From Sarea resinae (Eukaryota), in the NCBI GenBank assembly GCA_026026165.1, contig JAPEUD010000045.1, positions 1 through 64,000 on the forward strand: a DNA stretch of 64,000 bases, written 5' to 3'. Under the pieces are notes generated by a model. It was not told where the DNA came from. It saw only the letters and a program-made list of their open reading frames with translations, and did no database searches. The first letter of the stretch is position 1; every line of letters starts with the position of its first letter. A program made the position numbers and the translations under genes. This document shows positions 18,703 to 57,328 of this stretch, in pieces.

Positions 18703-18704
<2 letters not shown>

Positions 18705-18735
<31 letters not shown>
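18705..18735 (+). repeat. Poly-G tract (G31)
   Basis: Read directly from the sequence. Confidence 0.95.
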
Positions 18736-18736
<1 letters not shown>

Positions 18737-20367: not shown

Positions 20368-20633
20368 GTTGGTGACCGATTTGATTGATTCGAGAGCTGT
20401 CGCCAAAAAGCGAGGGAAACAGGAAGAGAGAGAAAGTAGCGGGTGCGAAGTGATGTGTAGAAAAGACAAAATGCAGATTTCAAATGCAAGCTTGAGCAAG
20501 AAACGAACGACGTTTATATAGCCATCCATCCTTCCATCCATCTATTCATTCACTCATCTATCCATGCCGTCCATGTCATCCCGCTCGTCCGTTCCGCTGT
20601 GAGTGTTCGTAACCGTGAAACATTTCATGTACC

Positions 20634-29842: not shown

Positions 29843-31247
29843 ATGCTCGATTATTTTTCCCTCAAGAAGGCCAAGAGGCAGCAACCGACCCGTCGCAGAT
29901 CATCAGCCCCAGTGCTTACCGACGAAGACCAAAAATGGCTCGAAAGATTGGCTGCCGAAGGAACGCCACCCGAGCTACCTGAACGTCCGATAGTGCTCAA
30001 TGATGGCCAGGCGGTGACTGGAAAGGATGCTCAGATTGCGCTGATGGATGGAGCGCAGAAGGTTCCTTTACCCGAGACACCTGAAGAGGGCGCAGTTCCA
30101 GCGGCTGAGGACACCGATGCGGGAAATGGTAAAGGAAAAGAGGTCGAGAAGGAGAAGACCAAGAAGAACCGATGGTCTTTCATACCTGGAATCGGCTCCA
30201 AGAAGGTTTGCTGCCGAGCCTTTGAACTAGGGTTTACGACTCACGATTTCAATAGGACAAGGACAATCAGCTAGCTGCAGCCGACCTACAGAGTGCCGCA
30301 GCCGCAGTCAAGGCTGGCGAAGATATTCCGGCTCAAGAAGGCAAGCTGAATTATGATCGAAAGCCGTGTACATTGCTGATGTCATCTAGCTGCTAAGGAA
30401 CAAGAGGACATGGGTAAAGTTCTCGATAATCTCAACTTAGCTGCCATCAACAATCGCGTCTTCAGTCTCTCGGACGAGTCGCAGAACATTCTCAAAAAGT
30501 TCAACCAAGTTCTCAAGGATCTCATTAACGGCGTCCCAACCGCCTACGATGATCTCGAATCGCTACTCAAGAATTCTGACAAGCAATTGCAAGGCATGTA
30601 CGGACACATGCCGCCATTTCTACAGAATCTTATCAAGTCACTCCCGACAAAAATGACAACCACCCTGGCACCGGAGATCCTGGCTGCGGCGGCCGAGAAG
30701 CAAGGGTTAAGTACCAGTGCGGCAACCGCCAAGGCACAGGCGGCTGGTGTTGACGTCGAAGGACAACCTAAGAAGAAGTCCAAGATCCCAAGCTTGAAGT
30801 CTTTGGTCACCCAACAAGGAGCTGTGGCCGGCATGTTGAGATCGATTGTGAGCTTCCTTCGGCTTCGATGGCCGGCGTTCCTTGGAAGCACGAATATTCT
30901 TCTTTCCGTGGCCGTCTTTGGTAAGAAATTACTCCTCCACACCCCTTTTCCATCTAACTGACCACTTAGTCCTTTTGTTTGTGTTCTGGTACTGCCATAA
31001 GCGCGGAAAAGAGGTCCGGTTGTCTCGTGCTGACGCAGAGAAAATCCTGGCCGGAGATTCAGAAATCGGCGGGTCAGAGCTCGGCACATCGGCAGGCGAC
31101 AGCAAAGCAGGACCCAGCGATGAAGCGGAGGCTAGCACTCACTCAGAATCCACAAACGTCAGCGCCTCCAGAGCCGGTGTGTCCGCTCCCTTATCTGACC
31201 CCGCGCAAGTCCCTTTGCCTGAGGGCGATTTGGAGATGACGAAGTAG
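29843..31247 (+). CDS. Conserved fungal hypothetical protein with a C-terminal TM helix
   Basis: Introns 30206-30255, 30341-30389 (GC-AG) and 30921-30969 give one continuous frame: LDNLNLAAINNRVFSLS..LKDLINGVPTAYDDLE..VFVLLFVFWYCHKRGKEVRL. Confidence 0.8.
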
Positions 31248-34045
31248 AAGGGCAGCGAGACTGATAGCTGACGTCAACGGACGGAGCAGGCGAGGGCACG
31301 CGTTCACGGGAGGGCGTGATATGGGGAACCCAAGGAGTAAACAAAGTACACGAGACACGAGACGTAAATGGACGGAATGAAGCACACGCGGTATTGCGAG
31401 CACCTGGATTGGCCGAAGACATCTCTGATGGAAACTCTGAAGCAAGAATGACTACCCAACCTATACCTTCACCTCCAGCCCAAAGTGAAACGAACGGCGT
31501 CGAAATCTCACAAGAAAACTCCCCTGCAATCTCTACCTTTGATCTCCGCGAAGAGCCACCAACGTATGGATTTGTGCTCAATCGCAAGCAACGAGAACAT
31601 GACCGACAAAGGCGACTGCGCCAGGCGCGAAATCGGCGGAATAGATGGGATTATGCGCCTTCGAATGCGCCGCTGGAAAGTATGGAGAGTTGCGTAGTTT
31701 CTTGATGGCGTCTCGTTTCTTTTCACGAATGCGTTTTCTACTACGATAGGTCAACGGGGCGTTTCTTTAACTAGGTGTAATGCAGATAGGACATGTTCTC
31801 CTCTTCTTTCCTTTGTCTATGCTTTCGTTGGACAGGCTATTCAAAATGTTGTTCTTTGGTTTTGGTTGCTCCCTGGAGATTGCTTGGTGTCTTTAGTCGG
31901 GACGGAAAACCAAAGCAGGAAGATGGGATAGGAGGAAGGGGCTGGAGCTGGGTTGCACGGACTGGTGTGGCGGATTTTACTTTCTTTTTTAAACCTAATG
32001 ACGGCACGACTGAGCAATAATATTCGTATGAGATAACCTAAAGCATGCAATCCAAGAAGCCATTGCATATCTGCTGCACGTATCTGCTAAGACGTCAGAT
32101 TCGCAGGGTCACACTCTGCAAATCTCATAGACAGCCAGACGGACAGTAGATAGCTATACGAGCTGTCGTTCAGTATGGAAGCTGTCTAGATTCGGCACGC
32201 CTGCTTGCCGAAGAAGCAATAATACAACAATAGCCCCATTCATGCGTCCGAGAGTTCAGTCAGACAGGGCGCTCCAGCCATTGACGTCGAGAGCAGGCCA
32301 GAGGGCGCAGGAGAAAGCCACTGCCGCGGGCACCACTATTTCTCGCAGATCGCGTCTACAGTGTCAGTAAGGATATCACGGCTACTACGATTGGCAGAGA
32401 AAGCTGGCCTTATCTGTGTCGGTTCAACTGTTTGCTACCTACCTGTTAGGCGCCCTGATGTGCTTTTTTTCTCTGCTGGATGGATTGGATGTTTTCGCTT
32501 GCATACGTCCAGACAAGACACCCTCTTCCTCGTTGAAGCAAGATCGCCGTTGATAGTCCGAAGCGTCGCTCCTCCGTAAAACGCGAATCCGGTCCGTGTC
32601 GTGTCAACAGACAAAAGCCAAAACGTCCGTAGCAAGGGTTTTTGCATTCATCGTCAAGCAAGCAAGCAAGCAAGCATTCGACTCCGGATACTGCTCCCCG
32701 CCCCCCCTTTCCAGTTTCCCCCCCCTGTGGTGATGCCGCGGCAGTGAGTGCAACGGCAATGACTGGCTGACTGGTCACTCTAGCTCCTCCAAGTTCGTCT
32801 GTGATCGGCTTTGTTGCGTTGGAGGACGTGAGCATTGAGTCGTGACTAACTCTGCTAGCTACGAAAAGGGTAAGGCGGGCGGAGCAGCCTCCGAGGAAGG
32901 AGCGGAGGAAGCGAGGGAGCGAGGCAGAGAGGAGGGCGGAAACTAATGTCGGTTGGATGATCCCGACCTGTAGCGGGTCTTCTGCTAGCGAGAAAGGCAA
33001 GCTTTTTTTGCTCCCTTTTGCCCAGGAGACCAACGGAAGCTAAGCTACGGTACTATGTCCGTTGTCGAGCAAAAATGCTTGGAGAATAACGTTGCAGGTG
33101 CCCCGTGTGTATGCACTCCACATGTCAAACTGGGGGCCGTACAGTAGTCGTCGCTCTCGCTCTACACTTTCCCTTACCACATATACACCGCACAGACTCG
33201 ACAGCTGGAGCAGAGCGGGGAATTTGACGTTCGAAGGAGGTGAGGGGGGGAGCTGGTGTCTATCGAGTATCGGCCGATGGGTCATCGAACGCAGCATGGT
33301 GAGGTATTTTCGAGGCGGGCCACTATTGACTTGTGTTACTGCCGCCCGTCCTCACTTACGGACTGCATTGGATGGATGTTTGTCGTATTTCACCGCATTG
33401 TGGAACATGTACAGCGGAAGAGGGAGAGGACGAGGCAGAGAATTGGATAAATTGACGTGGAGACCGAACCGAGCCCAGCCGAGCCGCACGACCTGCAGCC
33501 ATGTAACGCGGCTGTCATGGAAAACGACGGATGCCGTCGAAGTTTCTTCTACCGAGTACTACATACTCTCGATGTCGAATGTCATGTTACTCTCGATCAT
33601 GTCACGATATCCGCAGCTCTCGAATGGTCGAGCTGTCTCAGCAGCAAGTGGTGGACAGAGGCTGTCGCGCATGTGATGGACAGAGACTTGGGCATCGGTG
33701 ATGATGTCCACAGGCAAGGAGAGGAAGAGGGTCGGAAATGGGAATGAGATGTGGCGTTGCAGGTACCGTGAAAGGGAAGCCGCGACAGGGCGAGACGGGG
33801 ACACGGAAAAACTGACGAGGATGGGATCGAGATTTATTCGAGGATCTGAGAGGCAGCGGCGGAAGGTCCGGGAGCTTGTACGACCTTCGGCTCCGAGGAC
33901 CAGGACAGACGGGTACGGGGTCTGTGGTCGACGAGGCTCGGCGCCGAGGAGAAGAAGGAAAAGTCCGTCGGGGCGCCAATCAGATCGTCGATGGCACTGG
34001 GTAAGGCCATCCTGATCTTGATCTGCCGTGTGGGACGTCGGACGG

Positions 34046-34110
34046 CATGACTCGCCATGACTCGCCATGACTCGCAAGGACAGTGCGGGCGCTGGGCGGC
34101 CATGACTCGC
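34046..34110. promoter_or_regulatory. CATGACTCGC x4 (three tandem plus one), TGACTC bZIP-type cores
   Basis: Copies at 34046, 34056, 34066, 34101. Confidence 0.4.
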
Positions 34111-34863
34111 GAGCCGGTGGCCGGGGGGGGGGGTGTTGAAGCTGTGTCAGCAGTACGAATGCTCTCACCACTGCCAACGTGGTGAGAATTGGGTTTTAGG
34201 GCTTGGGGCGGCCTGTGGGCGGCCTGTGGGCGGCCTATGCGACGCGAACGGTAAGCTTTCGGTAACCCATCCGGACCTTGTCATTGCTCTACCTCCCCCG
34301 GGCCCCTGCCCCCAGACTCAAACTCATGATTCCAGGATCCGGTCTTACACGCTAGCTCCAAGGACGCCGTTAAGCCTCTGGAGGCGTTGAAGCCTGCCGT
34401 GGACACGCCAAAGGGCCAACACGCTAGCACGATCGACATATCTATCCCCAGATGAGAAGAAACCTACCGTCCCTAATCTTCCGGGTCACCTCATGTCAGG
34501 CCCTGTTAGACCCGAAACTGACTGTGTGAATTTTCTATCATTTGCGACATGGCCCCATCCCATCTCAGATCGTGCTCTGATAGCAGGCAAACCCGTCGGG
34601 TGCGAAATTTGGCAGTCAGAGCTTAGCATGAGGCTCTCAGGCGACTTTCGGCTCCGAGGGGAGGGGGGAGGGAGGAGGACGCGGACGAGGGGGCCCTTCT
34701 GAGCCTTCTGTTTTCTTATAAGAGCGGATGTCTGTTGGCAGGACCAGACTTTCTTGACCATCCTCATTCAAACGACAAACGATCAACGACGACAAAAGAA
34801 CTCTCTCTCACATCTGGCGCATCTTCTCTCTAGTTGCCAAAACATCCCTTTTCCACAGCCAAG

Positions 34864-35787
34864 ATGTTGGGCTTCAACTCTATGAACCGCTTCCTGGACG
34901 TCCAGGCGGCCAAGCTGGCCAAGTCCCGATACCTCTCTGCCCATGCCTTCCAATACTGCGGTGCCTTCTGCGGTGTCATGTGCTCGCTGTTCTTCTTGCT
35001 GGCCTTCGTCGCGGCTGGCTTCGTCAGCCCCATCAAGCCCTGGTGGAATGCCGAGCAGACGGCCCACCACTACCAAACACATCTTACTGGCGTCCGCGGC
35101 GGTGCTGCCCTCCTGGTCGTGTCCGGCATGTTCTACCTCCCATTCTCAGCCTGCATCTCTTCTCAGATGCGCCGCATCCCGAACCTGCACTACGCCGTGC
35201 ACCAGCTGCAGCTGGCCTCGGCCGCCGCCGGTATCTTCACCTTCATCCTTCCCGGCATCATCCTGGCTGCGACTAGCTACCGCCCTTACCGCAATGTCGA
35301 CATCACTCAGATGTTCAACGACTTCTTCTGGATCTGCGCGCTGATGCCGTGGCCCACCTTCATGGCACAGAATTTCGCCTTCAGCTACGCCATCATCCTG
35401 GACTCGCGCCCGAACCCGCTCTTCCCCAAGTCGCTGTCCATTGTCAACATCGTCGTGCCCTCGCTCTTCACGGGCGCGCTCGGCATCCACTGCCACAAGA
35501 CGGGCGCGACCGCCTACAACGGCGCCATGACCTTCTGGGTGCCGGGCGCGACCTTCTGCGTCCAGCTCGTCGTCGACGCCTACTTCCTGTGGCGCGCCAT
35601 CCAGACCGAGCCCGAGGGCGGCGAGATGGTCGTCGACATGTTCCCCAACAAGATCCCCAACGCCGGCCTGGCCGAGAAGGACCTCGAGTCCGGCGCGTCC
35701 AACGGCAGCGGCAGCGACGAGCCCATTCACGACTCCGCCGCCAACGGCACCACCCACGAGCCCGCCGCCACCAACGGAAAGATATAA
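34864..35787 (+). CDS. Intronless multi-pass membrane protein (about 6 TM), resembling bacterial DUF4386-like proteins
   Basis: ATG 34864, TATAAG at ~34717, strong C-ending codon bias, hydrophobic helices, motifs ISSQMRRIP, TSYRPYR, NDFFW..MPWPTFMAQN, PLFPK, YNGAMTFWVP; family assignment from memory. Confidence 0.8.
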   Translation: MLGFNSMNRFLDVQAAKLAKSRYLSAHAFQYCGAFCGVMCSLFFLLAFVAAGFVSPIKPWWNAEQTAHHYQTHLTGVRGGAALLVVSGMFYLPFSACISSQMRRIPNLHYAVHQLQLASAAAGIFTFILPGIILAATSYRPYRNVDITQMFNDFFWICALMPWPTFMAQNFAFSYAIILDSRPNPLFPKSLSIVNIVVPSLFTGALGIHCHKTGATAYNGAMTFWVPGATFCVQLVVDAYFLWRAIQTEPEGGEMVVDMFPNKIPNAGLAEKDLESGASNGSGSDEPIHDSAANGTTHEPAATNGKI

Positions 35788-36229
35788 TCTCTTCGCTGCG
35801 TCATCCACACACTCGCGCAGGGTTGGTTGCGGGTTTTCGATTCGATTGAGGGAGTGGAGAGGGGGATGATGAAGATGTTACGCCCGTGATTCTTTAATGA
35901 TTTGTTGATTCTTTCCTTTTCTTATGATATCCCAGGGGCCGGAGGTTTTATTGGAGCGAGGAACGGAGAGAGGAAGGAAAAACTTCACTAGAAGAAGAAG
36001 AAGCAGAAGCAGAAATCTGTCTTCTAGACTCACGATCTTTACGATGATAGCGACTTATCACCAACATCAAATACACAAATTAATCTAATACTATATACCC
36101 GATCATACGAGACCAGCAAGTGAAGGGAATGCAAGAGAATCTAGTGCATCTGAGAGAAATTCAAGCCTAGTTTGCTTTTGCTGTTGCTTGGCTTTGCTTT
36201 GTTTGCGCGCTTGCTTGCTTACTTGTATA

Positions 36230-36960
36230 CCTTACTTGCTTATTATTATACCTGCGTAACTAATACTCTAGCTTTTATTGCCTAGGTACCTTAGGTAGCT
36301 TAATTACCTTGTACAGCTAAACGTCAGCGTACCTCTTCCCTCTCCTCTCTCTTTACTAGGCCCTTGTACTGTAGATATATATACAACTAAAGCGTATCTT
36401 CTCTAATCTCTATAGAACTCTCTATACATTTATAAAGCATATCTAAGATACTCTTATACACACTTCTAGATATATCTCTACCTACCTAAGTAATCTTAAA
36501 AGTACCTAAGCGCTTCTTTACTCTTTCTCTATATCTTATTAAGTTCTACTAGTCTCTCTTCTCTAAGACTCTTCTCTAAGTTAGTAGTGTAGGAGTTAGG
36601 AGTTAGGAGATAGAAGTTACTAGAGATAGTAGAGTAAGGTAAGGTAAGGTAAGGTAAGGTAGAGTAAGGTAATAGACTAATTTTTATGTATCTACTCTGT
36701 ACTAGAGAGGATGTAGAAAGAGAGAGAGAGAGAGAGAGTAGCTAGGTAAGGTAGGTAGTAATACAGTGAAGATAGAAGAAGTAGAGGGTAGGATAAGATA
36801 AGATAATACAATACAATACTCTAAGGTAAGATGAGATACGATAAGATACGATAAGATAGCATAGAAAGGCGGAAGGGAAGAGAAAGGAAAAGGGATCGAA
36901 AGAAAACAAAACAGAAGAAGACAAAAAGAAACAGAGAAGGAGCTAATGTACATTTTATAG
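36230..36960. other. AT-rich, TpA-rich RIP-like island with (GTAAG)n and (AG)n
   Basis: Dense TA/CTA/TAG, near absence of CA/TG over long stretches; lies between converging 3' ends. Confidence 0.6.
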
Positions 36961-37161
36961 AAAGGTACCTGGACGGTAATGACGATGAAGATGCATCATC
37001 TCAACGCGACGCTCACGGTCTATTGATCCTTATCCCTCTATGGTACTAACGACAAAGACGGGGAAATTTCCTGTATCGAAACACTACGACGCCCGGGCAA
37101 AAACCGAGCTCCTAAGCGCTCATGCTATGCATGCCATGCCGTGCTGCATGCATACCACGCT

Positions 37162-38874
37162 CTACGCCGACTTCGCAGGCCATTCGGTGCGCTTGCGAGC
37201 GCGCACGTAAAAGTTCAGGGGCCGGATGAGCTGGAACTCGGGGTCGTACTCGATGGCCTCGTACGAGGTGCGCACGAACTCGTAGCGATAGACGAGCTCG
37301 GGGAAGAGGATCTTGGCCTCCTGCAGGGCGAAGTTGAAGCCGATGCAGCCGCGCGGGCCGGTGGCAAAGGGCAGGTACGAGCACCGGTGCCGGTTCTTGA
37401 CCGCCGCCGTGTCCCATCGGCCCGTGTCGAACTTGGTCGCGTTGTCCCAGTATTTCGGGTTCGTGTGGATGGCGTAGAGGGCGGGGACTAGCACGGCCTC
37501 CTTGGGCAGCCGCCAGCCGCCGGGTACGATCACTTCTTGCTTCGTCGTGCGGCCAGGCTGGAAGGATGGGTTGTGGATCCGCTGACTCTCCTTGACGAAC
37601 TTGTCGAGGTAGCTCAGCGACGCGACGACGTCGGGGCTCCAGGTTGTTTCGTTGTCGATGCCGTGGTCGACGAGCTCTTGGAGCAGCCGCTCTTGCTCGC
37701 CGGGGTAGGTGACGAGGGAGTAGAGCAGCCATGATAGCAGCGACGACGTCGTTGTGAAGCCGGCAGCCGTCATCACCACCATGTTCGGGATCGCGAGGCT
37801 CGACGGGAGCTTCTCGCCTTTCTCGTCGACGGCCCGGTTCATGTAGTCGACGACGTTGCGCGCCTGGAGGGCCGCCTCGTGCAGAGGAAGATCCGATGCG
37901 CCGGGGACGGTGGCGTTGTTGACCGCATCCATGATGAACGCGTATGTCTCCTGCTGGACCTCCTTCAGCCGTTTCGGGTCACCGAAAGGTAGCTTCTTGT
38001 ACCATTCGCCACGCGATGAGATCCTCTTGTTGAGGGCAAGGAAGTTAGCAATAGACACGACGGCGGGGTGCATGGGCGCGTCGGGGCTGTCGAAGTGGCC
38101 AAAGTCCATGCCGAGCGCGAATTTGCCGATGGTCTGAGACGCCAGCTTGAGCATGTACTGGTAGACGTTCCACGACTCGCCGGCCGCGTCGAGGGCGTCG
38201 AAGACCGGGAACGAGTTGCGCACCGTCTGCTGCATGAGCGGCGTATAGTGGCGAACGGCCTTGGGGCTGAGACAGGGCGGAATGAACTTATGGGCCAGTT
38301 TGAAGTTCTCGATTTCGGTGTCGCAGAGGAAGATGGCCGAATTGTCCTTGATGCCGTACAGAGGGTGGGAAGGCGTGATGTTCTTGGTAAAATAGGCCGA
38401 TTCGCTGAAGGCGAAGGCGGCGACTTCGGGCTCGTCGGTGAGGTAGACGACCTTGCCCATGGCATTAGTCTTGATGACGGTTCCGTACTTGTGGAATAGC
38501 CGTGCATGGTTGCCTAGGTGGTCGGGGAAGATCTCGTAGTAGTTGCCCACAAAGGGAAGTCCGGGCGGGCCGGCAGGTTCTCGTATCGGCATTCCGTCTA
38601 CGGTGATGCCAATAGGTGTTTGGGAATCAATGGCGTCAGCTGTCGATTCAATGGGCGTATCTGAACCTTGGAATGCAATTCCTGTGACCTCATGTTAGCT
38701 GCTGGATGACCAGTATTCTGGGGTAGGAACCAGTATCGTACCAGAGGGTTCGATGATATGGAATTCATCGCCGACTGTCTTTTGTAGAGCTTTGAAGTCC
38801 TGACCCGGATTCACATCGATGGAGCGATTCGTCGAAGATTCCAACCCCACGAGGTGGAATTGTTTGGCGACCAT
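37162..38874 (-). CDS. Cytochrome P450, CYP505 clan without fused reductase (CYP540/CYP541-like fatty-acid hydroxylase)
   Basis: ATG 38874 (MVAKQFHLVG), intron 38741-38682; GPPGLPFVGN, I-helix AAGFTTT, K-helix KESQR, heme motif PFATGPRGCIG; no N-terminal TM anchor. Confidence 0.9.
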
Positions 38875-39044
38875 CTTCGATAGGATTGCCTGTCCGGAAG
38901 CGGTAGTGGCTGCTGAAATTTAGAGCGGGCTTCAATCCAGGGTCGAATGCAGAAGGACGCTGATGGAGAGTCGAGATGGACGACTCGACCATGTCTGATA
39001 TATGTCGTTCTTCATCAAGGCAAGAACCTGGCATCCATGGACTG

Positions 39045-39691
39045 CCGAGGTATCATCCAGAAAGTGACTCGTGCGGAGCGCTAGAAAGCGTCAGCATCGT
39101 CATCTCTGATAGTCATGGGGCTCTGCTTCTCTGCCCGACCTTCTCAGCATGGTCCAGAAGATGGTTGCCGTGGCTTGGGTCCGCCACCCGATTTTAGTCC
39201 GGGCTCACGGGAGGGATCCATGAATGAATGCATGGACTATCTACGCCATCATCGAGGTGGATAGGAATGTCTCCTCCCCTACCACTGTCGTCTACTCGGA
39301 AGCAGGCTCCTGGACAGGAAGCCATCCGTAGCTGGAGGTATGTATGGAGGTTGTGCTTCCCGTGACATGCTTGCGACATTATCAATTTATAAAGAAGGTG
39401 TCAGGGTTCAACGGCTGCGAGTTAGCGGGCTGTCCGAGAACCCGGCAGTGTTGAATTTCGACTGATCGGCAATCGATCAACGTCGTCGTCGAGCTGTCTA
39501 CTCCGTAGTGCCGGCCAACGTCAGAATTAGGGTGCGGCACCTGTGGATCGCCACGACTAGCCCCGGTGATCGCCCCCTATTCTCGTGGGGGCCCCGACCG
39601 AGGCTTCTCCTCTCTCCTCTCTCCTCTCTCCTCTCTCCTCTTCTCCTCAAATCTCCTCTTGGGCTACAAAATAATGACTACCGAGCCTCGG
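39045..39691. promoter_or_regulatory. Three CCGAGG/CCTCGG (FarA/Ctf1-type) sites in the P450-b5/b5R divergent promoter
   Basis: CCGAGG 39045-39050 and 39598-39603, CCTCGG 39686-39691 (inside CCGAGCCTCGG). Confidence 0.45.
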
Positions 39692-40004
39692 CAACTTGGC
39701 TTCTTGCATGATGGCATACCGGCAGTCGAGAAAGTTTACTGTCAATATCCAAATGATGACATTCTACTCGACATAGAAGCGCGGCCTTTTGTCTCCTCGC
39801 GAGATGAACATTAATAGAGACCCTCCGATTGGAGAGGCATTTAACCTAGCCTGTTACTTTCTGCTTGGATTTGACTGAACGTCAATTTTTTTATTTCTAC
39901 TCCCTCAGCGTTCTTCGCGAATTTCTGGCAGACGACAAACTGTCAGCTCTTCTCTACATTGTTCGTCTAGTTTTCGTTCTGCTACACTACTTCGCCTTGT
40001 CGCA

Positions 40005-41539
40005 ATGTCGGAGACCTACTCCCTTGAAGAGGTAGGAAAGCATACGTCTCCGGACGATCTCTGGATAATCATCCACAACAAAGGTACGCATGCATCGTCA
40101 GTGTGTAGTTGATGTTTTAAAGCTAACATATATTATAGTCTATAACATATCGACATACCTCGAGGAGCACCCGGGTGGTATCGAGGTCTTGAAAGAATGT
40201 GCGGGTGCTGATGCTACCTTCGCATTTGAAGATGTTGGACATTCGGATGACGCCGTGGAAAGGCTGGCGGATTTCCTTGTTGGCGAGCTAGCAGATGAGG
40301 TAGGCTGTCTCACCGTCCACGGTGACCATCTGCAATGCTGACAGGCAGTGATTCCAGCATCGACAAGAGAATGTCGAATTCTATCGTCCGACATACGAAA
40401 AAGTCACGGCCGTCCCAATCCTGAAGACTAAGACATCGATATGGAAGCGATTGGAACGTCTGGCCGTCAAGCTTCTAGCTGCTGGAGCCCTTGGAACGGG
40501 CATCTACCTCGCTCGGAATGGCTTTGGTCAGGGTTTCTCTGCACTTCAGATCGACGGCCTGAAGCAGTGGATCCCCCACGGCCTCCCTCGTCCAGCTGGG
40601 GGCTTTTGGCAAGGCTATATCAGCTCTACTTTGGCATCCGCTGTCGTGGTGTTCGCTGGTGGAAACTACCTGTACAAGTCCCTGAACGAAGTCCATGATT
40701 TCCAGAAGTTTCCTGCCCACAAGCGCAGTGATTATACAATTCTCGTAAAGAAGTCAACAAGGGCTCTCAAGGGAGCGTCCGCTGCTCCACCGGTCCTTGA
40801 TCCCCGCACTTACCGGAAATTTCCACTTGCTGTCAAGGAAAAGCTCTCGCCCAACACGTATCACTTCGTCTTCGATCTCCCCACGAAGTCCTCTGTTCTG
40901 GGACTGCCCATCGGCCAGCATGTCGCTATCCGTGCCGATATTGGCGGTCAATCGATCAGCCGGTCTTATACACCCGTTTCCAATGATACGGATAAGGGCG
41001 TCCTCGAAATGGTGATCAAAGTCTACCCGAATGGTTTGCTGACGAACTACCTTGCTTCCTTGAACGTCGGTGACAAAGTCGAGTTCCGTGGCCCGAAAGG
41101 GGCCATGAAGTACCACAAAGGTCTTTGCAAGCACATCGGCATGATAGCGGGTGGTACTGGCATCACTCCTATGTACCAGCTCATTCGCGCAATCTGTGAG
41201 GACGAATCCGACAATACCACCGTCAGCCTCCTCTACGCCAACAACACGGAAGAGGACATTCTTCTCCGAGCACGATTAGATGCTTGGGCGAAGAAGTACC
41301 CGAAGAAGTTCAAGGTTTGGTACGTCTTGAGCCAGGCGCCCACGGGGTGGCAATTTGGTACCGGCTTTGTCACCAAGGACCTGATCAAGGAGCGACTACC
41401 TACACCGTCCCCCGATTCCAAGATCATGCTCTGCGGCCCTCCCGGCATGATCAATGCCATGAAGACCAATCTAGATCAGTTGGGATTCACAACGCCTGGG
41501 GCCATCTCCACGGCCAGCGACCAGATTTTCTTGTTCTAG
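40005..41539 (+). CDS. Cytochrome b5 / NADH-cytochrome b5 reductase natural fusion
   Basis: Introns 40084-40138 and 40300-40357; b5 heme ligands EHPGG and VGHS; two hydrophobic linker helices; reductase motifs [31 protein letters not shown]. Confidence 0.93.
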
Positions 41540-42581
41540 CGTGGCGATTTCCGTGTGCCTGCATATAGATGGCCGTATTCTGATTCATCTTTTCCTTGAG
41601 ATAGATTGTCGTCTCCTGTTGTATGCATTACTGTATAGATTAGATTGGCCTTTGTTGTATATCAGAATCAGATATTCTTGTGACAGGATCCATGAGCCAA
41701 CATTGTCCACATCGAGAGGCTTGGAAGGAAGACGGACTTCATAGATAATCAGGCTGTGTGTGGCGTTCGATGGGAATGCAAGGGATACAACTGCCGGTCC
41801 CTGCCGGGTGGCTGTCGATAGACGAGCCCAGGGGGTCACGGTAGATGGGCCGTGACTGCGTGGGGGCCGACGGGGCCCCTCCTCCAGCTCTTGCACCGAC
41901 TCGCTTCGAGTCTACTCCGAGCGCGACGGAGATTCTTATTTCCAGCCTCTGACAGCTGGAGCGGCGGGCACTACGAAGCTACTACGTAGTACATGCACTT
42001 CCATTCCATCGACAACCTCCACTTTCTCCATTCTTCTCCATCTCCTCCGCCTAGTATTGTCATCCGGGCACGGCTAAGGCATCAACGATTTGCCGTTACT
42101 CTTGAAATATACCGAGGTTCGATTCTGTGGTGTTCATCCTTTGTTGTTCTTCGAGGATCGCCCTCACCCGCGAGGCTCGACGGCAAATGCTGGTACGGAT
42201 TTCGGATCGGCCTTCTAGCTTCCACCGTCTACCGAAGTTCCCATGATGACGAAGCTCTGCTTTGGCGACATCGCTGTCGGATCTGCTCTGGAAAGTCCCT
42301 CAGACGGCGTCGACGAGGGGCCATCGCTCAGGCTACCTTGCATAGCCGGCCATGGATCTACGATCATGGTGCATAATCGACATCCAGGACATGCCGGCCT
42401 CGCAGCATCCCAGGGGCTTAGCCGTCTTATAAAGTCGTGTCTATCCACTGTGTGGAGTGACTGAAGCAAGACATAAGAATACTATATATTCCCTCACGCA
42501 ATCTATCGCTCTCGAACTCCCATCCTCTATCCCTCGACCTCTCTCTCACTTTCCATCGGATCGACTGTAAACATAAAGCAT

Positions 42582-44432
42582 ATGGCTTGGACAGCACCCG
42601 TGACCGACGACCGCTCAGTCGCCATTCTGGGCGCGGGCGTGCTTGGCCGCCGCATCGCCACAATGTGGGTTGCTGGCGGATACAACGTCAATATCCGAGA
42701 TCCCTCGGCCGATCAGCGAAATGCCGCCCTCCAATATGTCAAAGAGAATGCGCCTCCACGTGCGGCACAGATTGGCAGCAAGAAGTTGGGCCATGTCCAG
42801 GTCTTCGAAGATCTCGCGTCAACCGTCAAGGACGCTTGGCTGACGATCGAAGCGGTTCCCGAGGTGTTGCAATTGAAGATCGACACGTTTGGCGAACTCG
42901 ACTCCCTCGTTCCGGATGATTGCCTCCTCGCTTCAAATTCCTCGTCCTACAAAAGCAACGTGATGCTTTCCAAAGTGAGACCAGGAACCCACGGCAGGGT
43001 CCTCAATATGCATTACTTCATGCCGCCAGATCTCCGAGTGGTGGAATTAATGACCAGCGGGTCCACCGAGCCGGAGATTTTCCCGTTTCTGATGGATGTC
43101 TTGAAAGGCCTCGAAATGTTCCCCGTGACTGTTCGCAAAGAATCGACTGGTTTCCTCTTCAATCGAATCTGGGCTGCCATCAAACGAGAATGTCTGCTTG
43201 TCCTCGCAGATGGAGTTGGCACACCGGAAGATATCGATGCCATTTGGCATGAGATGTGGGATAATTCGAAGGTCGGGCCTTGCGGTTTCATGGACCAGGT
43301 TGGCCTCGATACTGTTGCCTTTATTGAGGGCCACTACATCGATGAACGTCACTTAGACTCGCGTGCGAGAGATTTCGTGCGGTCCGAGTACGTCGAAAAG
43401 GGAAAGCTAGGGAATAAATCAAACCTTGGTGGGCTGTATCCTCCTAAATCGGTTGCGAATAGACAGGCCAACGGAGACACCAACGGACACGGAACCGGGC
43501 ATAACACAGTGCCTACGCTTTATTTCCTCGATATTGGAGTGGGGAATCTCGACGCACCTTTTTCGTCAGGACGTGTACTTTCTGGCGCCGCTGACGGGCG
43601 GCCGCTCAAGACTCTGGTCCACTCCGAAGCTGCACCAGATGGCGTCGATGTTTGTAGAGACACCGGACGCTTGTATTGGACCAATATGGGAGTCCCACGG
43701 TCAAATGACGGCTGCGTGAAGTCTTGCGCCTTGGATGGCTCTGATGTGCGCACTATAATCCCCGTCGGCGCAGTTCACACGCCCAAAGAGATTGTCGTGG
43801 CCAATGTATCCAAGAAGGTGTATTTCTCGGACCGCGAGGGCCTGCGAGTGATGCGCTGCAATCTCGACGGTAGCAAACATGAGACCCTCATCCAGACGGG
43901 TGATTGGCAAGACCCAAGCCAAATGGCGGATCCGACCCGATGGTGTGTCGGCATCACGGTCGACGAAAAGCGGAGGAAGTTCTACTGGACTCAAAAGGGC
44001 CCGAGTAAAGCGGGCAAGGGCCGTATCTTCAGGGCCAACATAGACATACCCGCCGGCCAGAGCGCCACCGATCGCACGGACATCGAAGTGCTGTTCTCCC
44101 ACCTCCCGGAGCCCATCGATCTCGAATTCGACAAAGCAGCAGAGATGCTATACTGGACCGATCGCGGCGAAATGCCGTACGGCAACAGCCTCAACCGCGC
44201 CTATGTCGGCTCGTCCAAACCCGCGGCGACGACCAAGTTCGAAAAGACGTATGGCTATACCATCCTCGCGACCGGGCTGCACGAAGCCATCGGCCTGAAA
44301 CTTGACACGGTGAACAAGCACATCTACGCTTCTGATCTCGGCGGGTGCATCTACCAGTTCGACCTGGATGGCTCGAACCGGGTGAAGATGTATGAGGGCC
44401 AGGGCGCCTACACCGGCCTCACCTTTGCATAG
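42582..44432 (+). CDS. 3-hydroxyacyl-CoA dehydrogenase fused to a YWTD (LDLR class B-like) six-bladed beta-propeller
   Basis: GAGVLG, IEAVPE, ASNSSS, NMHYFMPP, GFLFNRIW; then blades LYFLD, LYWTN, VYFSD, FYWTQ, LYWTD, IYASD; intronless. Confidence 0.9.
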   Translation: MAWTAPVTDDRSVAILGAGVLGRRIATMWVAGGYNVNIRDPSADQRNAALQYVKENAPPRAAQIGSKKLGHVQVFEDLASTVKDAWLTIEAVPEVLQLKIDTFGELDSLVPDDCLLASNSSSYKSNVMLSKVRPGTHGRVLNMHYFMPPDLRVVELMTSGSTEPEIFPFLMDVLKGLEMFPVTVRKESTGFLFNRIWAAIKRECLLVLADGVGTPEDIDAIWHEMWDNSKVGPCGFMDQVGLDTVAFIEGHYIDERHLDSRARDFVRSEYVEKGKLGNKSNLGGLYPPKSVANRQANGDTNGHGTGHNTVPTLYFLDIGVGNLDAPFSSGRVLSGAADGRPLKTLVHSEAAPDGVDVCRDTGRLYWTNMGVPRSNDGCVKSCALDGSDVRTIIPVGAVHTPKEIVVANVSKKVYFSDREGLRVMRCNLDGSKHETLIQTGDWQDPSQMADPTRWCVGITVDEKRRKFYWTQKGPSKAGKGRIFRANIDIPAGQSATDRTDIEVLFSHLPEPIDLEFDKAAEMLYWTDRGEMPYGNSLNRAYVGSSKPAATTKFEKTYGYTILATGLHEAIGLKLDTVNKHIYASDLGGCIYQFDLDGSNRVKMYEGQGAYTGLTFA

Positions 44433-45808: not shown

Positions 45809-48800
45809 TCACACATCCTGCTTGCCCTCCTCCTCCTCCTCCTCTCCTTGCCCGTCCTCCTTCAGCACCGCCGCATTCACCAGTCTCGACTTACCCGCCA
45901 CGACACCGGCGACCGCCAGGAGCGAGCCGTTGCCCAGCAGTTCGAAGACGGGCACGTCGGCCTTGACCTCGCGGAAGAGCCAATTGCGCAACTCGACGGC
46001 CACGAGCGAGTCGACGCCGTACGCCGACATGGGCTCCGACGCGTGCAGGTCCTCGAGCGGGATCACGAGCATCTTGGACATTTTGGCAATGAGGGCATCG
46101 CAGATGAGAGCGGCGGCGTCGGCGACGGACTCGGCCTGCCTGAGCAGGGCAGGGAGCGTATCGGCCCCAGTGGCGCCGCCCTCGCCGTTGCCGTCCGAGC
46201 CCTGGTTCCGGTCGAGCTGGCGCAAGTGGCAGAACTTGATGTCGTGGAACCAGAAGGGCACCTCGGTGTCTTGCTTGACGGGGCTCGAGTCCACCATGCC
46301 TTGCGTGCCGAGCCCCGTGATCAGCTGGCAGCTGTCCTGGTCGCGGAACGAGCGCGTAAAGGCCGTTTTGACCATGGCAAGGAACTCGTCGTCGCGGATC
46401 CCCAGGAAGCCCCAGCGCTCCAGGTTGCCGGCCACGTTCTGGTTCTCGGCCACGAACCCGACTGAGAGAATCATCCCGAGGTCGATCGTCACGGCAGGGA
46501 GGCCGCGCGCGGTGCGGTAGTGCGCCATGGCGTCTTGGAAGGTCGAGGACGCGGCGTAGCTGGCCTGACTGGACGTGCCTACCGTGCCGGCCGTGGAGGA
46601 GAACATGACGAAGAAGTCCAGGTCAGACGGCGACGAAAAGCTATTGTGTAGATTCCACGTGCCGTCGACTTTGGGTCGCAACACATCTTGATACGCTCCA
46701 TGGCTCATCTTCTCGAAAATCGAATCCTGGGGAAATTTTTAGCTTTTTGTTTCCGGTATATGATAATTTTTCTTACCTTGAGTACCATGCCTCCGTGCAC
46801 CACGCCTCGAATCGGCGGCATCTCACGACGGCTCTGCTCCAGGGCCTTTGCAAGGTCACCGTCGCTCGATACGTCGCATCGATAAACAGCAACATTCACC
46901 CCGAGGTCCTTTAGATCCGAAACCAGGGCACGAGCACTCTCACTCGTGGCGCCGTTTCGTGAGAGGAAAATGAGGTTCTTTCCCCCGTTTTTGGCCATCC
47001 ACTTTGACAATGCCCTGCCTAAGCCTCCCAAGCCTCCAACGAGAAGATAAGAGGCATCTTCTCTGAGCTGCATTTCATTTGGCGGCCGGGGGATCACCTG
47101 GTGACGAATTAGCACTGACTTGGTCAAAAGCAGGATTTGGGCAAGATATCACTTTGACGATATCATTGTCGTTCGACTTGATGACTAGCTTCCCAAGATG
47201 CTTGCCGGCTTGCATGAATCGAAACGCGTCTTCCATGTTGGCAGTGCTGTACGCCGTAACCGGCTTCACGGGCTCGATTGTTCCCTTTCGAAGGAGATCC
47301 ATGACATCGGAGAAGATCCGGCCGGCCAACTCCTTTCGCTTTCGGAAGACGAGAACCATGTCGACCGATGCAAATTGGACGTTCCTGCTGAATATCTCCA
47401 TCTCCAGCCGAGAATTGAGTTGGAAGTCGCGCTTGCCAATCTCCACAAATCGACCAAAAGGCGCGATACAGTTCCACGTTTCGCGCAATAAGTCACCAGC
47501 CAGGGAGTTCAGGATAACATCCACTCCCTTGTTGTCAGTCATGCGACGGACCCCTTGAGCAAAAGAAGCGTCTCGGCTTGAGAAGATGTGGTCCTCCGGA
47601 ATACCATAGTTTTCCATGATGAACTTTTTCTTTTCGAGTGTGCCAACCGTTGTGAAGATTTCTGCCCCAATTATCTTTGCCAAAAGAATTGCTGCCTGTC
47701 CCACACCTCCGGCGGCGGCATGAATGAGGATTGTCTCACCCTTTTGAAGATGGGCAGTATCGACGAGAGCATAGTACGCCGTGGTGAAAACGATAGGCAA
47801 AGAAGCAGCAATTTCAAAAGACATGTCGTCGGGAAGCTTTTGAGCCCAGATGGCAGGATATCGAACGTAGTTTGAAAAAGCTCCCAAGGCAATGCTGGAG
47901 ACACGATCACCAACTTTGACATTTGTGACGGCGCCGCCTACCTCTTTGATTATTCCGGAGCATTCTACACCGAGAGGGTTGCCGACGATCTGGCCCATAG
48001 TCACCATGATGTCGCTGAAGTTAATACCAGTCGCTTTGACTTCGATTTCCACCTCATCCTCTCCAAGAGGCCCAGACCTAACAGGATCATCGATGAAGCG
48101 AAGGGTATCAAGCAGCCCAGGAGCGCCGATATCAATTTTCAGATCACGTCCAGGTTGCTTGAAAGACTGCAGGATCGAATCGGGTGGCTGAGTCTCGGCG
48201 TCAATGACCCGGTCCATTTCGACGTCGCCTAGTATTCGCGGAATCTGAAGCCTGCCGTGTCTCTCGGCAAACTCTAAATCGCAATCTTGGTTGTTATCTG
48301 CATCAGCAAACGAGGTTCCATACAGCTGGGAGATTGTCTTGACAGCTTCCTCATTAGACAAAGAGTCTGTCGTGTCCAAGTCAAGGGTGATGAACTTGAT
48401 GGCATGATTCTCCGTTCGAATTGAACGAGCCAGACCAGAGATCAGGTTGGCTTCGGGGGCTTCTCCATTGATCGAGCCACCACGAGTGACCCACAAAACA
48501 CCTCTTGCTGAGGAGAACATGCGCCGCAAGCCTTCAAAGTGAGTTGCACTAATCCCATGAAGGAACGGCCGAGAAAATTCACCCAAAAATATACAGACTT
48601 TGCCTGCCACTTCAAGGTCAGAATCCCCAAAGGTTTGTATTCCCGGCACCGCACCCGTCAAGGTCTGTACGCTGAAGCTCAGGGAGATCATCAATTGGTC
48701 GGGTATATCGCCGTTATGAATGATGATCGTCTCAGGAAAGTCTGGCGTCGAAGGAGCAACAGCCGTTGTAGCAAGAACACTGTAGAGCTTATCCTCTTCA

Positions 48801-51800
48801 TCGGGATAATCCTGGAGGCAAACATCCAAGCCAGAATACTGAGTTCGATGTAGTAGATTGTCCCATTGGTCTTCCGTCAACGTAGGTCCATGCGTGCGGC
48901 CCTCCTCGGCACCTGAGAATGGTCAGCCATAATGAAAAATAAGAGCGCACAGCGATACATACCAAGCCACCATCCAGGAAGTGTTCCGAAGAACATCGGT
49001 ACCCGCATGAGAGAACGAGTGATTTCCATGAGTATGAGCTTGCCTCCTGGCTTGAGCAGCTTTCGAACATTGGACATGGTCACTTCCATGTTCGCGGTGG
49101 CATGGAGTACGTTTGCAGCGATAATCAGATCATACTTGCCATGCTCAAAACCTTGCTCACTCGGCTCGTTCTCGACGTTGAGTCTCTTATAGCTGATCAG
49201 GTTTCCCCAAGGCTTAAAGTTCTCTTGCGCCTTTTCAAAGAACCCGCTTGATATATCGGTAAAGTCGTAATGGGAGAAGCGCGGATATTTGCCTTCGTAC
49301 CCTCCCAACGTTTGCAGTATTGGAAGCGTCGCTCCACCCGTCCCAGCACCGATCTCCAGTATTTCCAAACTGGGTCGCTTATGTGCAAGTTTGTCGATGT
49401 ATGCTGCCATATGCTCATAAGTTCGATCTCCTCCAAGAGAATCCCGATATAGCGAATACAGGAGGTCATCCTGCAACATCAACTCCAGAGCGTCGATTTC
49501 CTTTCTCATGATTGGAGCAAGCTTTTCACCCAGGCGACAGATTGCCAGACCTTCAGTGCCAGACTCCCTGACATTTTCTAGCAGCGCTTGTTTCTCCTCG
49601 CGGCTAGCCTTGAGCCATTGAGCGCTCTGGTGTGGTAACATTCCTTTCTCAGCGAGATCAGATCGGCCTTTCATCCAATTGTAGAAAAGCCGATGATGCC
49701 ATTCCATCTGGTCAAGATCAAATTCAGTAAGAGCTGAGAGAGCAGCCTGTATGTGATACAAGCAAGCGGCTTCTATATCGCCAATCAAGGCAGATTCAAT
49801 CGGATCACTAGCGCGGCCTGGAAAGATCTTCTGGCTATCTCCGACTTTCAAAGAATCCACGTCATCATCGAAAGCCAATTTGAAGCAGAGCCTCCTTGGA
49901 TCTGAGCGCTCTCCTGTAGCCATCTCGTTGGTGAGCGAAGCACATTTCAGTCCTTGAACTTCAATTACGGGCAATGGGTGGCCACCAGCATCCCCCGTGA
50001 CAGTGATATTCGCTTCCGCATTTCGAGATCCTTTGAATTCTCCGAGCGCGCAAACTTTCAGGTGTGTTCCAGGCTTGTGTGAGATTTTGCTCGAGACGCT
50101 GAGCTGTTTGATGAAAACAGGTACCATGGGGGTCGTCATGTCAGCACCGTGTTCAGAAAGCGCAGGAAACATAGACTGCAGCGCGCAATCGAAGACCGTA
50201 GGATGGAGAAGATAGGGATACTCAAAATTATAAGGCATGAAAGAGGCAGTATCCGGAATTGAAATGGTGGACAGAGATTGACCTCGTCCGCCACGACTTG
50301 CGATGAGATTGCGGAAGCAAGGTCCATACCGTAGCCCGAGCTTGTCGAAGGCTTCATACAAACAATCGATTTCGACCGACTCGAGACCAGCAGATTCGCA
50401 GGAGGAGATGATATCCTCTACCAGCCTGATCGCCTGCTCGCCTTCTAAACCTCCATCAACCTCTCCGGTTTTCGCACCGAACACCGCTGCCACCAGGCCT
50501 CGGCAATGCTCGCTCCAGCCCTCCTGCTTCGAGAAAGAAAAGAGACGGAACTCATGCCATATCTCGGACGATTCGAGAGAGCTGGCATTAAAAGGGCGAA
50601 GGGAAAACAAAGTCTCCACTCCTTCAGGTGTTTCCGGAACCACTAAAGCTTTGCTGATGCTGATCTCGCGCAACTTAAAGCTTGATATGGTGTGAATCCT
50701 AGCGACTTCCACCTGACGCATGGCCTCGATCGCCATGATCATCATGCCCGCTGCAGGATATAAAGCGGCGCCCTGAATATTATGGTCTCTGATCCAAGGG
50801 TTTTCGGACACGCGGAGAAAGTTCCTCCAGCGTGGCTCCAATTGGTTGAAGTCGGTCACAGGGGCTCCCAAAAGGTCGTGGCGGGGAGCGGGACGGAAGC
50901 GGTAGTTTGTGCTTAGCCTTGATTCCTGCCAGTGCTTCGCAGAATGATTCCACGGGTACGAAGGCAGATCGACCAGTAGTTGTGGAGAGTATTTGGGACC
51001 GGTATTGACTGCTCCGAATTTGATAGAATAGCCTTTGACGAACAGAGAGCTCGCAAGGTCTAAGACTGTCTGAGTAGCATCGACCTTTCTTCTGAGACAT
51101 GAGAGGTAGAAAATGTCTGCTTTCTTAAAATTATCACCGGCGAGAATTTGCTTGATGGGCCCTTCAAGTGCAGCGTGAGGCCCGATCTCGACCAGGCCAT
51201 CAACGTTCGGCTTTGAAGAGCGTCCACGACGTTTGCCTGCCTTGCTTTTCTCGAAGCACATGCTTTCCAGAGCGTCTGAGAAGAGCACAGGGGAGACCAT
51301 GTTCCCGACCCAGTATGCACCGTCAAGCTCGCCAACCGATGTAAGGTTCCCATGAACTGAAGAATGGAATTCAACGTCCCTAGGAGTTTGTAGCTTAAGG
51401 GTCTCCAAGGTCTTCAGATAGTCCGCAGCAATCTCGTGCATATGATGCGAGTGGTATGCGACCCCAATCTTCAATTTGCGATTGAAAATCTTCTGTCCCT
51501 CAAGCTTTTCCTGAAGCTCATCTATCGCACTGCTGTCGCCTGAGATTGTAACACTCTTCGGACTGTTGATGCAGGCAATGACAAGTTTTCCGGAAGTTAC
51601 TTGCGATATATAGGTTTCTGCCTCTTCACTGGACAGACCAACAGCAGCCATCCCACCAGAGAGGTGAGGAAGCTCCGACATCTTGGAGGAAAGAAGCCCT
51701 CGGTAGTAGACAATTTTCACGGCGGATTCAAGAGAGAGTGCGCCGGCAGCATAGGCCGCAGCAATCTCACCGCTAGAATGGCCTATCACTGCCGTCGGGT

Positions 51801-56937: not shown

Positions 56938-57328
56938 CTAACTACCCGTCTAGGGTACTGAGTAAATTTTTGTTTTTCCTTTTTTTTTTCTCCACGATCT
57001 GAATGCAAAGTATCACCTTGATATTCTGACGCTTATGAAGTAACTAACAATGCCAACATGATACTGTTTGACTTGAAGTTTTTGTGATTTCAGTTGTAAA
57101 CTCCGATCGGTGACGGGTCTGGAAAGACATTTATAGTGATATCATCCCTATAGCCCTAAGATTCTATGATCAACTACCTCCACTCCAAAAAAAGCACCAT
57201 GTTATCAATCTCTCTATAATCTATACTCCTCTACCCTATCCCATCCTATCCCTCCCCCCGATTCCTTTCCCCTATCTCTCCCCCCTCCCTCCCTCCCTCC
57301 CTCCTCCCTGCCCCAGCCTTCACACAAC

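Follow-up and report, generated by a model that had tools for sequence, protein, structure and literature searches.

A Sarea resinae gene trio that probably copies the CYP540A2/CBBR/betaHDH fatty acid route of Aspergillus nidulans, and its neighbouring membrane protein gene

The closest described system is the cluster of Aspergillus nidulans (AN8919-AN8921; Kojima et al. 2025, PMC12462446), in which the cytochrome P450 CYP540A2 is accompanied by a cytochrome b5/b5-reductase fusion (CBBR) and a 3-hydroxyacyl-CoA dehydrogenase-like protein (betaHDH). Clusters of this type number 714 in ascomycetes, and the published table of trios contains no row for Sarea or Zythia. CPR supports only 5.5% of CYP540A2 activity, the ratio of NADH oxidation to P450 reduction is 3.3, and the P450 step proceeds at near 0.009 per s, compared with 12 per s for the dehydrogenase. 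The substrate that the A. nidulans betaHDH oxidises is the (R)-3-hydroxy acid in its free form; a CoA-transferase adds the CoA later. A transcription factor resembling AN8918 lies beside the cluster in 115 of 167 strains and is optional; the Saccharata trio appears without it in Table S3 (PMC12462446).

The window analyzed here, a 64,000-nucleotide stretch of S. resinae DNA, contains these three genes and a gene for a membrane protein, all with intact reading frames at 34864-44432, in agreement with the initial annotation. The features discussed below are the following (sites and regions carry no strand):

33887-34659: three TCGGC(T/G)CCGAGG sites (33887, 33938, 34648) upstream of the membrane protein gene, each holding a CCTCGG core; putative Zn2Cys6 sites
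34864-35787, plus strand: membrane protein, 307 aa, intronless
36000-36900: AT-rich island between the membrane protein and P450 genes, GC about 0.37, RIP-like dinucleotide bias
38874-37162, minus strand: cytochrome P450 (CYP540A by sequence identity), 550 aa, single intron at 38682-38741
38875-40004: divergent P450/CBBR promoter, with CCTCGG at 39045, 39598 and 39686
40005-41539, plus strand: CBBR (b5/b5-reductase fusion), 473 aa, introns at 40084-40138 and 40300-40357
42582-44432, plus strand: betaHDH (3-hydroxyacyl-CoA dehydrogenase-like domain plus YWTD propeller), 616 aa
45809-54262, minus strand: highly reducing polyketide synthase (PKS), KS-AT-DH-cMT-ER-KR-ACP

The locus resembles the A. 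nidulans cluster in encoding the same three proteins with the same domain layouts, the likeness of betaHDH resting on its layout and on homologues, with AN8921 itself outside the alignment. The P450 and CBBR genes are likewise oriented head to head, and their starts are separated by 1130 bp, which confirms the 1.1-kb divergent promoter noted earlier. The genome contains a single CYP540, a single CBBR-type and a single betaHDH-YWTD gene, i.e. one copy compared with two in A. nidulans. Unlike the A. nidulans cluster, the trio has no AN8918-like transcription factor: its position is occupied by the DUF4386-like membrane protein gene, and a polyketide cluster adjoins the other flank. Neither a Zn2Cys6 motif nor a Fungal_trans match was detected in the window (an intron-split motif could escape such a search), and the factor part of P0144, used as a proxy, had no match anywhere in the genome. 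The AT-rich island, with a TpA/ApT ratio of 1.84 (0.63 window-wide) and a (CpA+TpG)/(ApC+GpT) ratio of 0.57 (1.22 window-wide), is probably a decayed repeat.

A P450 is assigned to a subfamily when its identity to a named member exceeds 55%. The window enzyme, identical to database protein P0067 (550 aa; NCBI name Sarea resinae), shares 59% identity (326/549, local alignment) with A. nidulans CYP540A2 (P0467), or 60.6% over aligned positions, and on this sequence criterion it belongs to the CYP540A subfamily, the comparison being with CYP540A2 and leaving CYP540B4 outside. It had been annotated as an anchorless P450 of the CYP505 clan. The first part of this description holds, since the highest 19-residue hydropathy within the first 100 residues is 0.39, which predicts a protein without an N-terminal anchor. 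The second is corrected to CYP540A, a family placed by one classification in its own cluster, apart from clan 505 (PMC3505482); CYP540A2 and CYP505A8 have also been called related (PMC12462446). The enzyme has the related fatty acid-hydroxylating fold of CYP505 (P450foxy) and CYP102 (BM3), with BM3-type matches at E values of about 1e-21 to 1e-25. It differs from both in containing no fused CPR domain, a separate b5-type partner taking its place, and, by analogy with CYP540A2, in a predicted hydroxylation at carbon 3 instead of a subterminal position.

Like CYP540A2, the window P450 lacks an anchor and carries an extra N-terminal domain, of about 80 residues, ahead of the P450 domain. Its key residues are T355 (the I-helix Thr), S417, C490 (heme motif) and Q528. 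T363, S431 and Q542 of the A. nidulans enzyme are all identical here, S417 and Q528 corresponding to the carboxylate-binding Ser431 and Gln542; among 120 homologues, the Ser is present in 108 and the Gln in 116. On the P450 side of the reductase-docking interface, all 10 mappable positions named in the A. nidulans study are identical or retain their charge.

CBBR is composed of Cyt-b5, FAD_binding_6 and NAD_binding_1 domains. The b5 heme ligands (H37 and H61) are followed by a linker with two mildly hydrophobic segments and by an NADH-cytochrome b5 reductase domain, and the best solved relatives are enzymes of the latter type. At WYTLDRAP, human b5 reductase has an aligned Asp with a role in the choice of NADH; the window CBBR has Ser in its place, as does the Stemphylium CBBR. 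The suggestion that such a fusion may act as an NADH-driven P450 partner finds support, by analogy, in the published A. nidulans system (PMC12462446). The betaHDH, rightly recognized earlier as a dehydrogenase-propeller fusion, comprises a 3-hydroxyacyl-CoA dehydrogenase-like domain (with H144, E155 and N194) joined to a YWTD/LDLR-type propeller.

The trios of Saccharata proteae and Pseudogymnoascus contain the closest relatives of the P450 (70%, Saccharata) and betaHDH (61%). The two genes are two gene numbers apart in all four genomes that name both (S. proteae and three Pseudogymnoascus strains). The Saccharata cluster, like the window trio, lacks the transcription factor.

It is very probable that the P450, CBBR and betaHDH genes constitute the genome's single copy of the published route, and that the membrane protein gene is a lineage-specific neighbour. 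This reading is based on gene structures, orthology, residue conservation and the conserved P450-x-betaHDH order, the chemistry having been demonstrated for A. nidulans only; by analogy, we infer that the substrates in S. resinae are the same. CBBR would accept hydride from NADH onto its FAD and then pass single electrons via the b5 heme to the soluble P450, in which S417 and Q528 would bind a free medium-chain fatty acid by its carboxylate while carbon 3 is hydroxylated, yielding an (R)-3-hydroxy acid. With NAD+, betaHDH would convert this free acid into a free 3-oxo acid, and a CoA-transferase whose gene lies elsewhere would then direct the 3-oxo acid into beta-oxidation. The net reaction would be the conversion of fatty acid and O2 into 3-oxo acid and H2O, with NADH recycled in a 1:1 balance on paper (stoichiometry), and the pathway would provide a cytosolic, CoA-independent entry to oxidation that lowers the level of toxic fatty acids.

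The 3-oxoacyl-CoA step proposed in the initial annotation was misplaced, as the A. nidulans dehydrogenase uses the free (R)-3-hydroxy acid and the CoA-transferase acts after it (PMC12462446). For this reason an acyl-CoA ligase is not needed and its absence is expected; indeed, no AMP-binding domain was found among the 128 window ORFs scanned, as had been stated. Two CoA-transferase loci are present in the genome, both outside the module, and judged by eye both products seem to carry mitochondrial presequences, which leaves no evident counterpart of the cytosolic transferase in the A. nidulans scheme. The A. nidulans report that the initial annotation cited does exist, the likeness of the window P450 to CYP540A2 (59%) is upheld, and since that report already includes the dehydrogenase (PMC12462446), the three genes form a described unit rather than a new inference. 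With three of the four genes copying a published route, and the fourth found beside the trio in none of 11 other fungal species, the finding is mostly ordinary. This copy nevertheless adds a lineage outside the table of PMC12462446 to a recently described and unusual P450 electron chain.

The fourth gene encodes a protein with six long hydrophobic helices and a disordered tail (model pLDDT 94.7). Its DUF4386-like family (1,588 representatives at E<=0.001) is common to scattered ascomycetes and Actinobacteria, and D153, Q116, R140, R104 and D180 are near-invariant. Pfam gave no family at E<=0.001, PF14329 (DUF4386) included, and NCBIfam gave nothing; PF14329 is matched weakly by 10 of 74 relatives (best E 2.5e-5). 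DUF4386 and related actinobacterial membrane proteins are the closest known group, with Atlas look-alikes at a feature score of 0.93 and TM values of 0.92-0.93. Foldseek returned no match at E<=0.001, and the best Z scores in the fold comparison (10.3 and 10.0; designed barrels, a GPCR) are within the generic helical-bundle range. Literature searches for DUF4386 and for six locus tags of homologues returned nothing. Binding of heme or metal was rejected, as no His is conserved in 134 relatives. The domain was found fused only to a DUF1214 protein (P0263); the long P450 models P0493 and P0144, considered as possible fusions, do not contain it. In a FastTree phylogeny (midpoint root; direction of transfer not given), 21 fungal-labelled rows, the labels of P0207 and P0259 being a guess, are separate from the bacterial rows.

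The membrane protein is not a conserved fourth component of the module, because its gene adjoins neither CYP540 nor betaHDH in any of 11 other fungal species, judged by gene number, accession or contig (listed paralogues only; Pestalotiopsis and Seiridium account for 7 of the 11, and Aspergillus unguis is outside the count). As a general rule, its role as a component, proposed in the initial annotation together with a check on the conservation of all four genes, finds no support. No trio matches were found around 37 other loci of the membrane protein, and none of its 66 matches is named from Saccharata, Pseudogymnoascus or Cladophialophora.

There is a smaller chance, which we consider rather low, that within the Sarea lineage the protein is a co-regulated fourth member, serving fatty or resin acid import, transport of the 3-hydroxy or 3-oxo product, or an Asp153-dependent step. 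CCTCGG, given as a FarA/CTF1-type core motif in PMC5068947, occurs in all three module promoters: three times upstream of the membrane protein gene, three times between the P450 and CBBR genes and once upstream of betaHDH (42112). These 7 occurrences compare with 2.8 expected (P about 0.024), and 8 further window regions of promoter size contain none; however, the membrane protein promoter alone (3 vs 1.2 expected; P 0.14) is not significant. Of the 37 genomic copies of the longer motif TCGGCNCCGAGG, three sit in the 780 bp preceding the membrane protein gene, but it was these three sites that served to define the motif. As a marker of a fatty acid regulon it was rejected: most of the remaining 34 copies fall in coding sequence, and the 75 ORFs examined in their vicinity include no beta-oxidation gene. 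In 13 of 19 bacterial loci, the genes closest to the relative of the membrane protein include beta-oxidation genes, although the loci are themselves related and the count stands without a background rate. One paralogue in this genome follows a P450-SDR-P450 run, and GC3 is high in both the membrane protein (0.89) and P450 (0.82) genes. Against this, the RIP-like island separates these two genes, and reconstitution of the A. nidulans chemistry succeeded with no protein of this type present (PMC12462446).

The promoter sites and bacterial neighbourhoods are weak hints of a local link. For the trio chemistry the membrane protein would be dispensable; it would most likely act within the membrane, as an Asp-dependent enzyme or a carrier, with a hydrophobic lipid or terpenoid-type acid as substrate or cargo, and its gene may be fatty acid-induced. 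That in this resin-dwelling fungus the trio lost its local regulator and gained such an induced protein for hydrophobic acids, dependent on a buried Asp153, from a family that in Actinobacteria resides in lipid-catabolic islands is a tentative scenario, to which we give limited credence. If the protein did act with the trio, a function could be assigned to its family, some 1,600 clusters for which a clear solved fold is lacking, and it would be the first that can be tested; the protein itself would be a novel type of membrane enzyme or carrier.

The 3′ end of the PKS gene lies about 1.4 kb downstream of the end of betaHDH, with no gene between them. This PKS gene is absent from the initial annotation. 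Its companions encode a UGT, an FSH1 hydrolase, an MFS protein, a FAD monooxygenase and an acyltransferase, and this polyketide/glycosyltransferase cluster is probably separate from the trio. Published work on polyketides of Sarea or Zythia amounted, in our searches, to one passing co-occurrence. Recruitment of the trio as tailoring or precursor-supply enzymes for this cluster, e.g. to provide the 3-hydroxy or 3-oxo acyl portion of a glycolipid, appears improbable. Points in its favour are the adjacency of betaHDH and PKS, the unusual P450 substitutions, and LAM1, a 3-hydroxyacyl-CoA dehydrogenase-like gene that PMC4112212 describes as part of a Cochliobolus PKS locus; one betaHDH homologue is labelled LAM1-like. 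The trio, however, is a unit in hundreds of genomes and the sole copy in this one, the free-fatty-acid-binding residues of its P450 are kept, and the CCTCGG of its promoters is absent from the PKS-UGT, FSH1 and MFS regions.

The window P450 departs from the family consensus at 45 positions, including M348 and A350 of the I-helix, as well as C164 and F171. Many of these substitutions are common to enzymes of Saccharata, Pseudogymnoascus or Cladophialophora, which are not, to our knowledge, resin specialists. We have little confidence that the trio, working as in A. nidulans, has branched or terpenoid conifer-resin acids or their breakdown products as its natural substrates, even though the identical P450 comes from a genus stated, in PMC7451776, to fruit only on resin and some departures are in the I-helix; identity to CYP540A2 is 59-61%, and S417 and Q528 are kept. 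In a quick tree of 47 rows, none of them a named CYP540B, CYP505 or CYP541, the window enzyme occupies a branch separate from the Aspergillus enzymes, and because of this position and the 45 departures its substrate or preferred chain length may differ from theirs. By analogy with CYP540A2, it may offer a divergent soluble P450 for making (R)-3-hydroxy acids, a useful but incremental addition.

The four genes proposed in the initial annotation were all found with intact reading frames, and a highly reducing polyketide synthase (HR-PKS), left out of that annotation, has its end approx. 1.4 kb beyond the last of them:

34864-35787, + strand: membrane protein gene (307 aa), without an intron
38874-37162, - strand: P450 gene (550 aa), with a single intron of 60 bp
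40005-41539, + strand: b5/b5-reductase fusion (CBBR) gene (473 aa), with two introns
42582-44432, + strand: dehydrogenase-propeller fusion (betaHDH) gene (616 aa)
45809-64000, continued in positions 1-3600 of locus L018: PKS cluster (HR-PKS with a methyltransferase domain, UDP-glycosyltransferase, FSH1 serine hydrolase, MFS transporter, FAD monooxygenase, TRI-like acyltransferase)

The P450 and CBBR genes are oriented head to head, with their starts 1130 bp apart, and the P450 lacks a hydrophobic N-terminus, in agreement with the anchorless enzyme and ~1.1-kb divergent promoter described initially. An identical database protein of 550 aa (P0067) carries the NCBI source name Sarea resinae. In line with the earlier remark, none of 128 scanned window ORFs contained an acyl-CoA ligase domain. 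The ~3.6 kb upstream of the membrane gene (31200-34800) contain no recognisable gene, and at 13274-20541 a hydantoinase/oxoprolinase-S-Me-THD fusion gene adjoins a class III aminotransferase gene.

The P450, CBBR and betaHDH genes are another copy of an already published system, plus one membrane-gene neighbour. CYP540A2, CBBR and betaHDH of Aspergillus nidulans were described as a single cluster by Kojima et al. (2025; PMC12462446); the report mentioned in the initial annotation for CYP540A2 and its fusion partner therefore exists, and includes betaHDH too. According to this paper, (i) CBBR passes electrons from NADH to CYP540A2, which hydroxylates free C7-C12 fatty acids to (R)-3-hydroxy acids, (ii) CPR with NADPH gives 5.5% of the CBBR-supported activity, (iii) the free (R)-acid is the substrate of betaHDH, with NAD+ as the oxidant, and (iv) a 3-oxoacid CoA-transferase is proposed for the later addition of CoA. 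It counts 714 clusters across 662 strains of ascomycetes, and the complete trio in 167 strains; Sarea and Zythia are absent from its cluster table, and its text does not refer to any membrane protein or transporter. Our search, whose coverage mostly lay outside subscription papers, found no further literature on CYP540A2/CBBR.

Judged by sequence, the window trio is orthologous to that of A. nidulans. The two P450s (the A. nidulans protein is database entry P0467) are 59% identical, and T363, S431 and Q542 of CYP540A2 correspond to T355, S417 and Q528 (numbering in PMC12462446 equals database numbering + 8). Of 120 P450 homologues, 108 share S417 and 116 share Q528, and all 10 mappable residues of the P450-side interface are identical or keep their charge. 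In all four genomes naming both, the gene numbers of the P450 and betaHDH homologues differ by two. The nearest relative is Saccharata proteae (P450, 70%; betaHDH, 61%), whose trio is tabulated in PMC12462446 without a transcription factor; the window trio is similar in this respect, since neither a Zn2Cys6 motif nor a transcription factor domain turned up anywhere in the window. CYP540, CBBR-type and betaHDH-YWTD genes are each present once in this genome. The window P450 departs from the family consensus at 45 positions, including M348 and A350 of the I-helix, and branches with Saccharata, Pseudogymnoascus and Cladophialophora in a quick tree. The window and Stemphylium CBBRs carry Ser in place of an Asp of human b5 reductase that has a role in NADH choice. 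These features count against a function identical to that of the A. nidulans trio. The initial assignment to the CYP505 clan was loose: CYP540A2 is called related to CYP505A8 by Kojima et al. (PMC12462446), whereas CYP540 is a cluster of its own in PMC3505482.

The CBBR linker (40352-40800) contains mildly hydrophobic residues 114-132 and 167-185 (hydropathy 1.32 and 1.21; 1.94 in the Stemphylium homologue). These segments may be what is left of the b5 and b5R anchors, in the form of a membrane-touching hairpin; CBBR is treated as soluble in PMC12462446. P0455, a 1069-aa protein model of Stemphylium lycopersici, joins CBBR and betaHDH; this could reflect the merging of two gene models, and a true fusion would unite NADH producer and consumer in one protein.

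By orthology, electrons would pass from NADH via FAD and the b5 heme to the P450, and the proposed NADH-driven partnership of the fusion with the P450 finds support in the A. nidulans CBBR (PMC12462446). Fatty acid would be converted to (R)-3-hydroxy acid and then to free 3-oxo acid, with CoA attached last. The 3-oxoacyl-CoA step proposed earlier thus had the order wrong, and the lack of an acyl-CoA ligase is to be expected. Two CoA-transferase loci are present in this genome, both away from the trio, and both enzymes have apparent mitochondrial presequences (judged by eye). With one NADH used and one formed, the route would be redox-neutral on paper. Since the text of PMC12462446 speaks of regeneration for the assay system only, and gives a ratio of NADH oxidation to P450 reduction of 3.3 and rates of ~0.009 per s for the P450 step vs 12 per s for betaHDH, a closed NADH cycle between the two enzymes is at most possible.

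The membrane protein, originally included as a module component, is not a conserved fourth member of the trio. Its gene adjoins CYP540 or betaHDH (by gene number, accession or contig) in none of the 11 species naming homologues on both sides of the comparison (four Pestalotiopsis, three Seiridium, Grosmannia clavigera, Aspergillus carlsbadensis, and Cirrosporium and Thelonectria, both scored through betaHDH only); the comparison covered the paralogues among the matches listed, seven of these species are close kin, and A. unguis is outside the set. Moreover, tblastn with the window P450, b5, CBBR and betaHDH gave no match in 37 loci: 32 from metagenomes (5 fungal by GC and identity; long flanks in only 2), four stretches round two paralogues of this genome and one beyond the window.

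A local functional link between the membrane protein and the trio is rather unlikely. In its favour, CCTCGG, the FarA/CTF1 core (PMC5068947), has three copies upstream of the membrane gene, three in the P450-CBBR intergenic region and one ahead of betaHDH (7 vs 2.8 expected; P ~0.024, 500 Markov samples), with none in 8 other promoter-sized regions, including those of the PKS cluster; however, the count in the membrane promoter by itself is not significant (P 0.14). A longer palindrome common to the three membrane-promoter sites has only 37 genome copies, these three included, but the pattern was derived from the same sites, and the remaining 34 mark no fatty-acid genes. Furthermore, an AT-rich island with RIP-like bias (36000-36900) separates the membrane gene from the P450. 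TAAGG and GA simple repeats are also located there. Among the nearest genes of 19 bacterial membrane-protein loci, beta-oxidation genes occur in 13, a 540-aa flavoprotein in 10 and a P450 in 1 (raw counts, 111 of 124 ORFs scanned; the loci are related, three being from one assembly). The family therefore accompanies lipid catabolism in general, which leaves some room for a local link. This bacterial neighbourhood looks like an undescribed lipid-catabolic island. Recurrent neighbours in loci L051-L069 and L023-L045 are the 540-aa flavoprotein, an APH-like kinase, DUF7064, TetR regulators, beta-oxidation genes and COX3/COX4-like small membrane proteins, with a Rieske dioxygenase or AveC-like protein in some.

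The PKS gene is followed by those of the UDP-glycosyltransferase, FSH1 hydrolase, MFS transporter and FAD monooxygenase, with the acyltransferase gene lying beyond the end of the window. The cluster is apparently biosynthetically complete, with no pathway regulator seen in 45809-64000 or L018:1-3600, and its product is probably a polyketide that is both glycosylated and acylated. Recruiting the trio to tailor this product would not be unprecedented, given that LAM1, a gene resembling those for 3-hydroxyacyl-CoA dehydrogenases, is part of a PKS locus (PMC4112212), but the wide conservation of the trio as a unit, its single copy in this genome and the presence of CCTCGG in its promoters, with none in promoter-sized regions of the PKS cluster, argue for two neighbouring units.

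The membrane protein has 66 close matches, all named ones being from scattered ascomycetes; a profile search yielded 1,588 family representatives, and actinobacterial look-alikes were found. DUF4386 is matched weakly by 10 of 74 aligned members. The structural model (pLDDT 94.7) has six long helices, and fold searches gave no clear match to a solved structure. D153 (96%), R140 (97%), D180 (94%) and Q116 (93%) are conserved across 134 relatives, which share no conserved His; this pattern would fit an acid-catalysed membrane enzyme or carrier. Several of the closest fungal homologues are from Lachnellula, Mytilinidion resinicola, Lophium and Grosmannia, which we take to be conifer- or resin-associated fungi (a plain observation). 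A second paralogue in this genome (57%; L014:1525-9901, contig C54, ~348-357 kb) directly follows P450, SDR and P450 genes on one strand, and CCTCGG occurs three times in the intergenic region upstream of this paralogue. The third (36%; L016-L017, contig C105, ~101-121 kb) has GST, FSH1 and SDR genes as cluster neighbours, together with a non-reducing PKS that carries a reductive domain. On a fungal-looking metagenome contig, a gene with a MerB (alkylmercury lyase) domain (L037:4477-5568) is located near a membrane-protein homologue.
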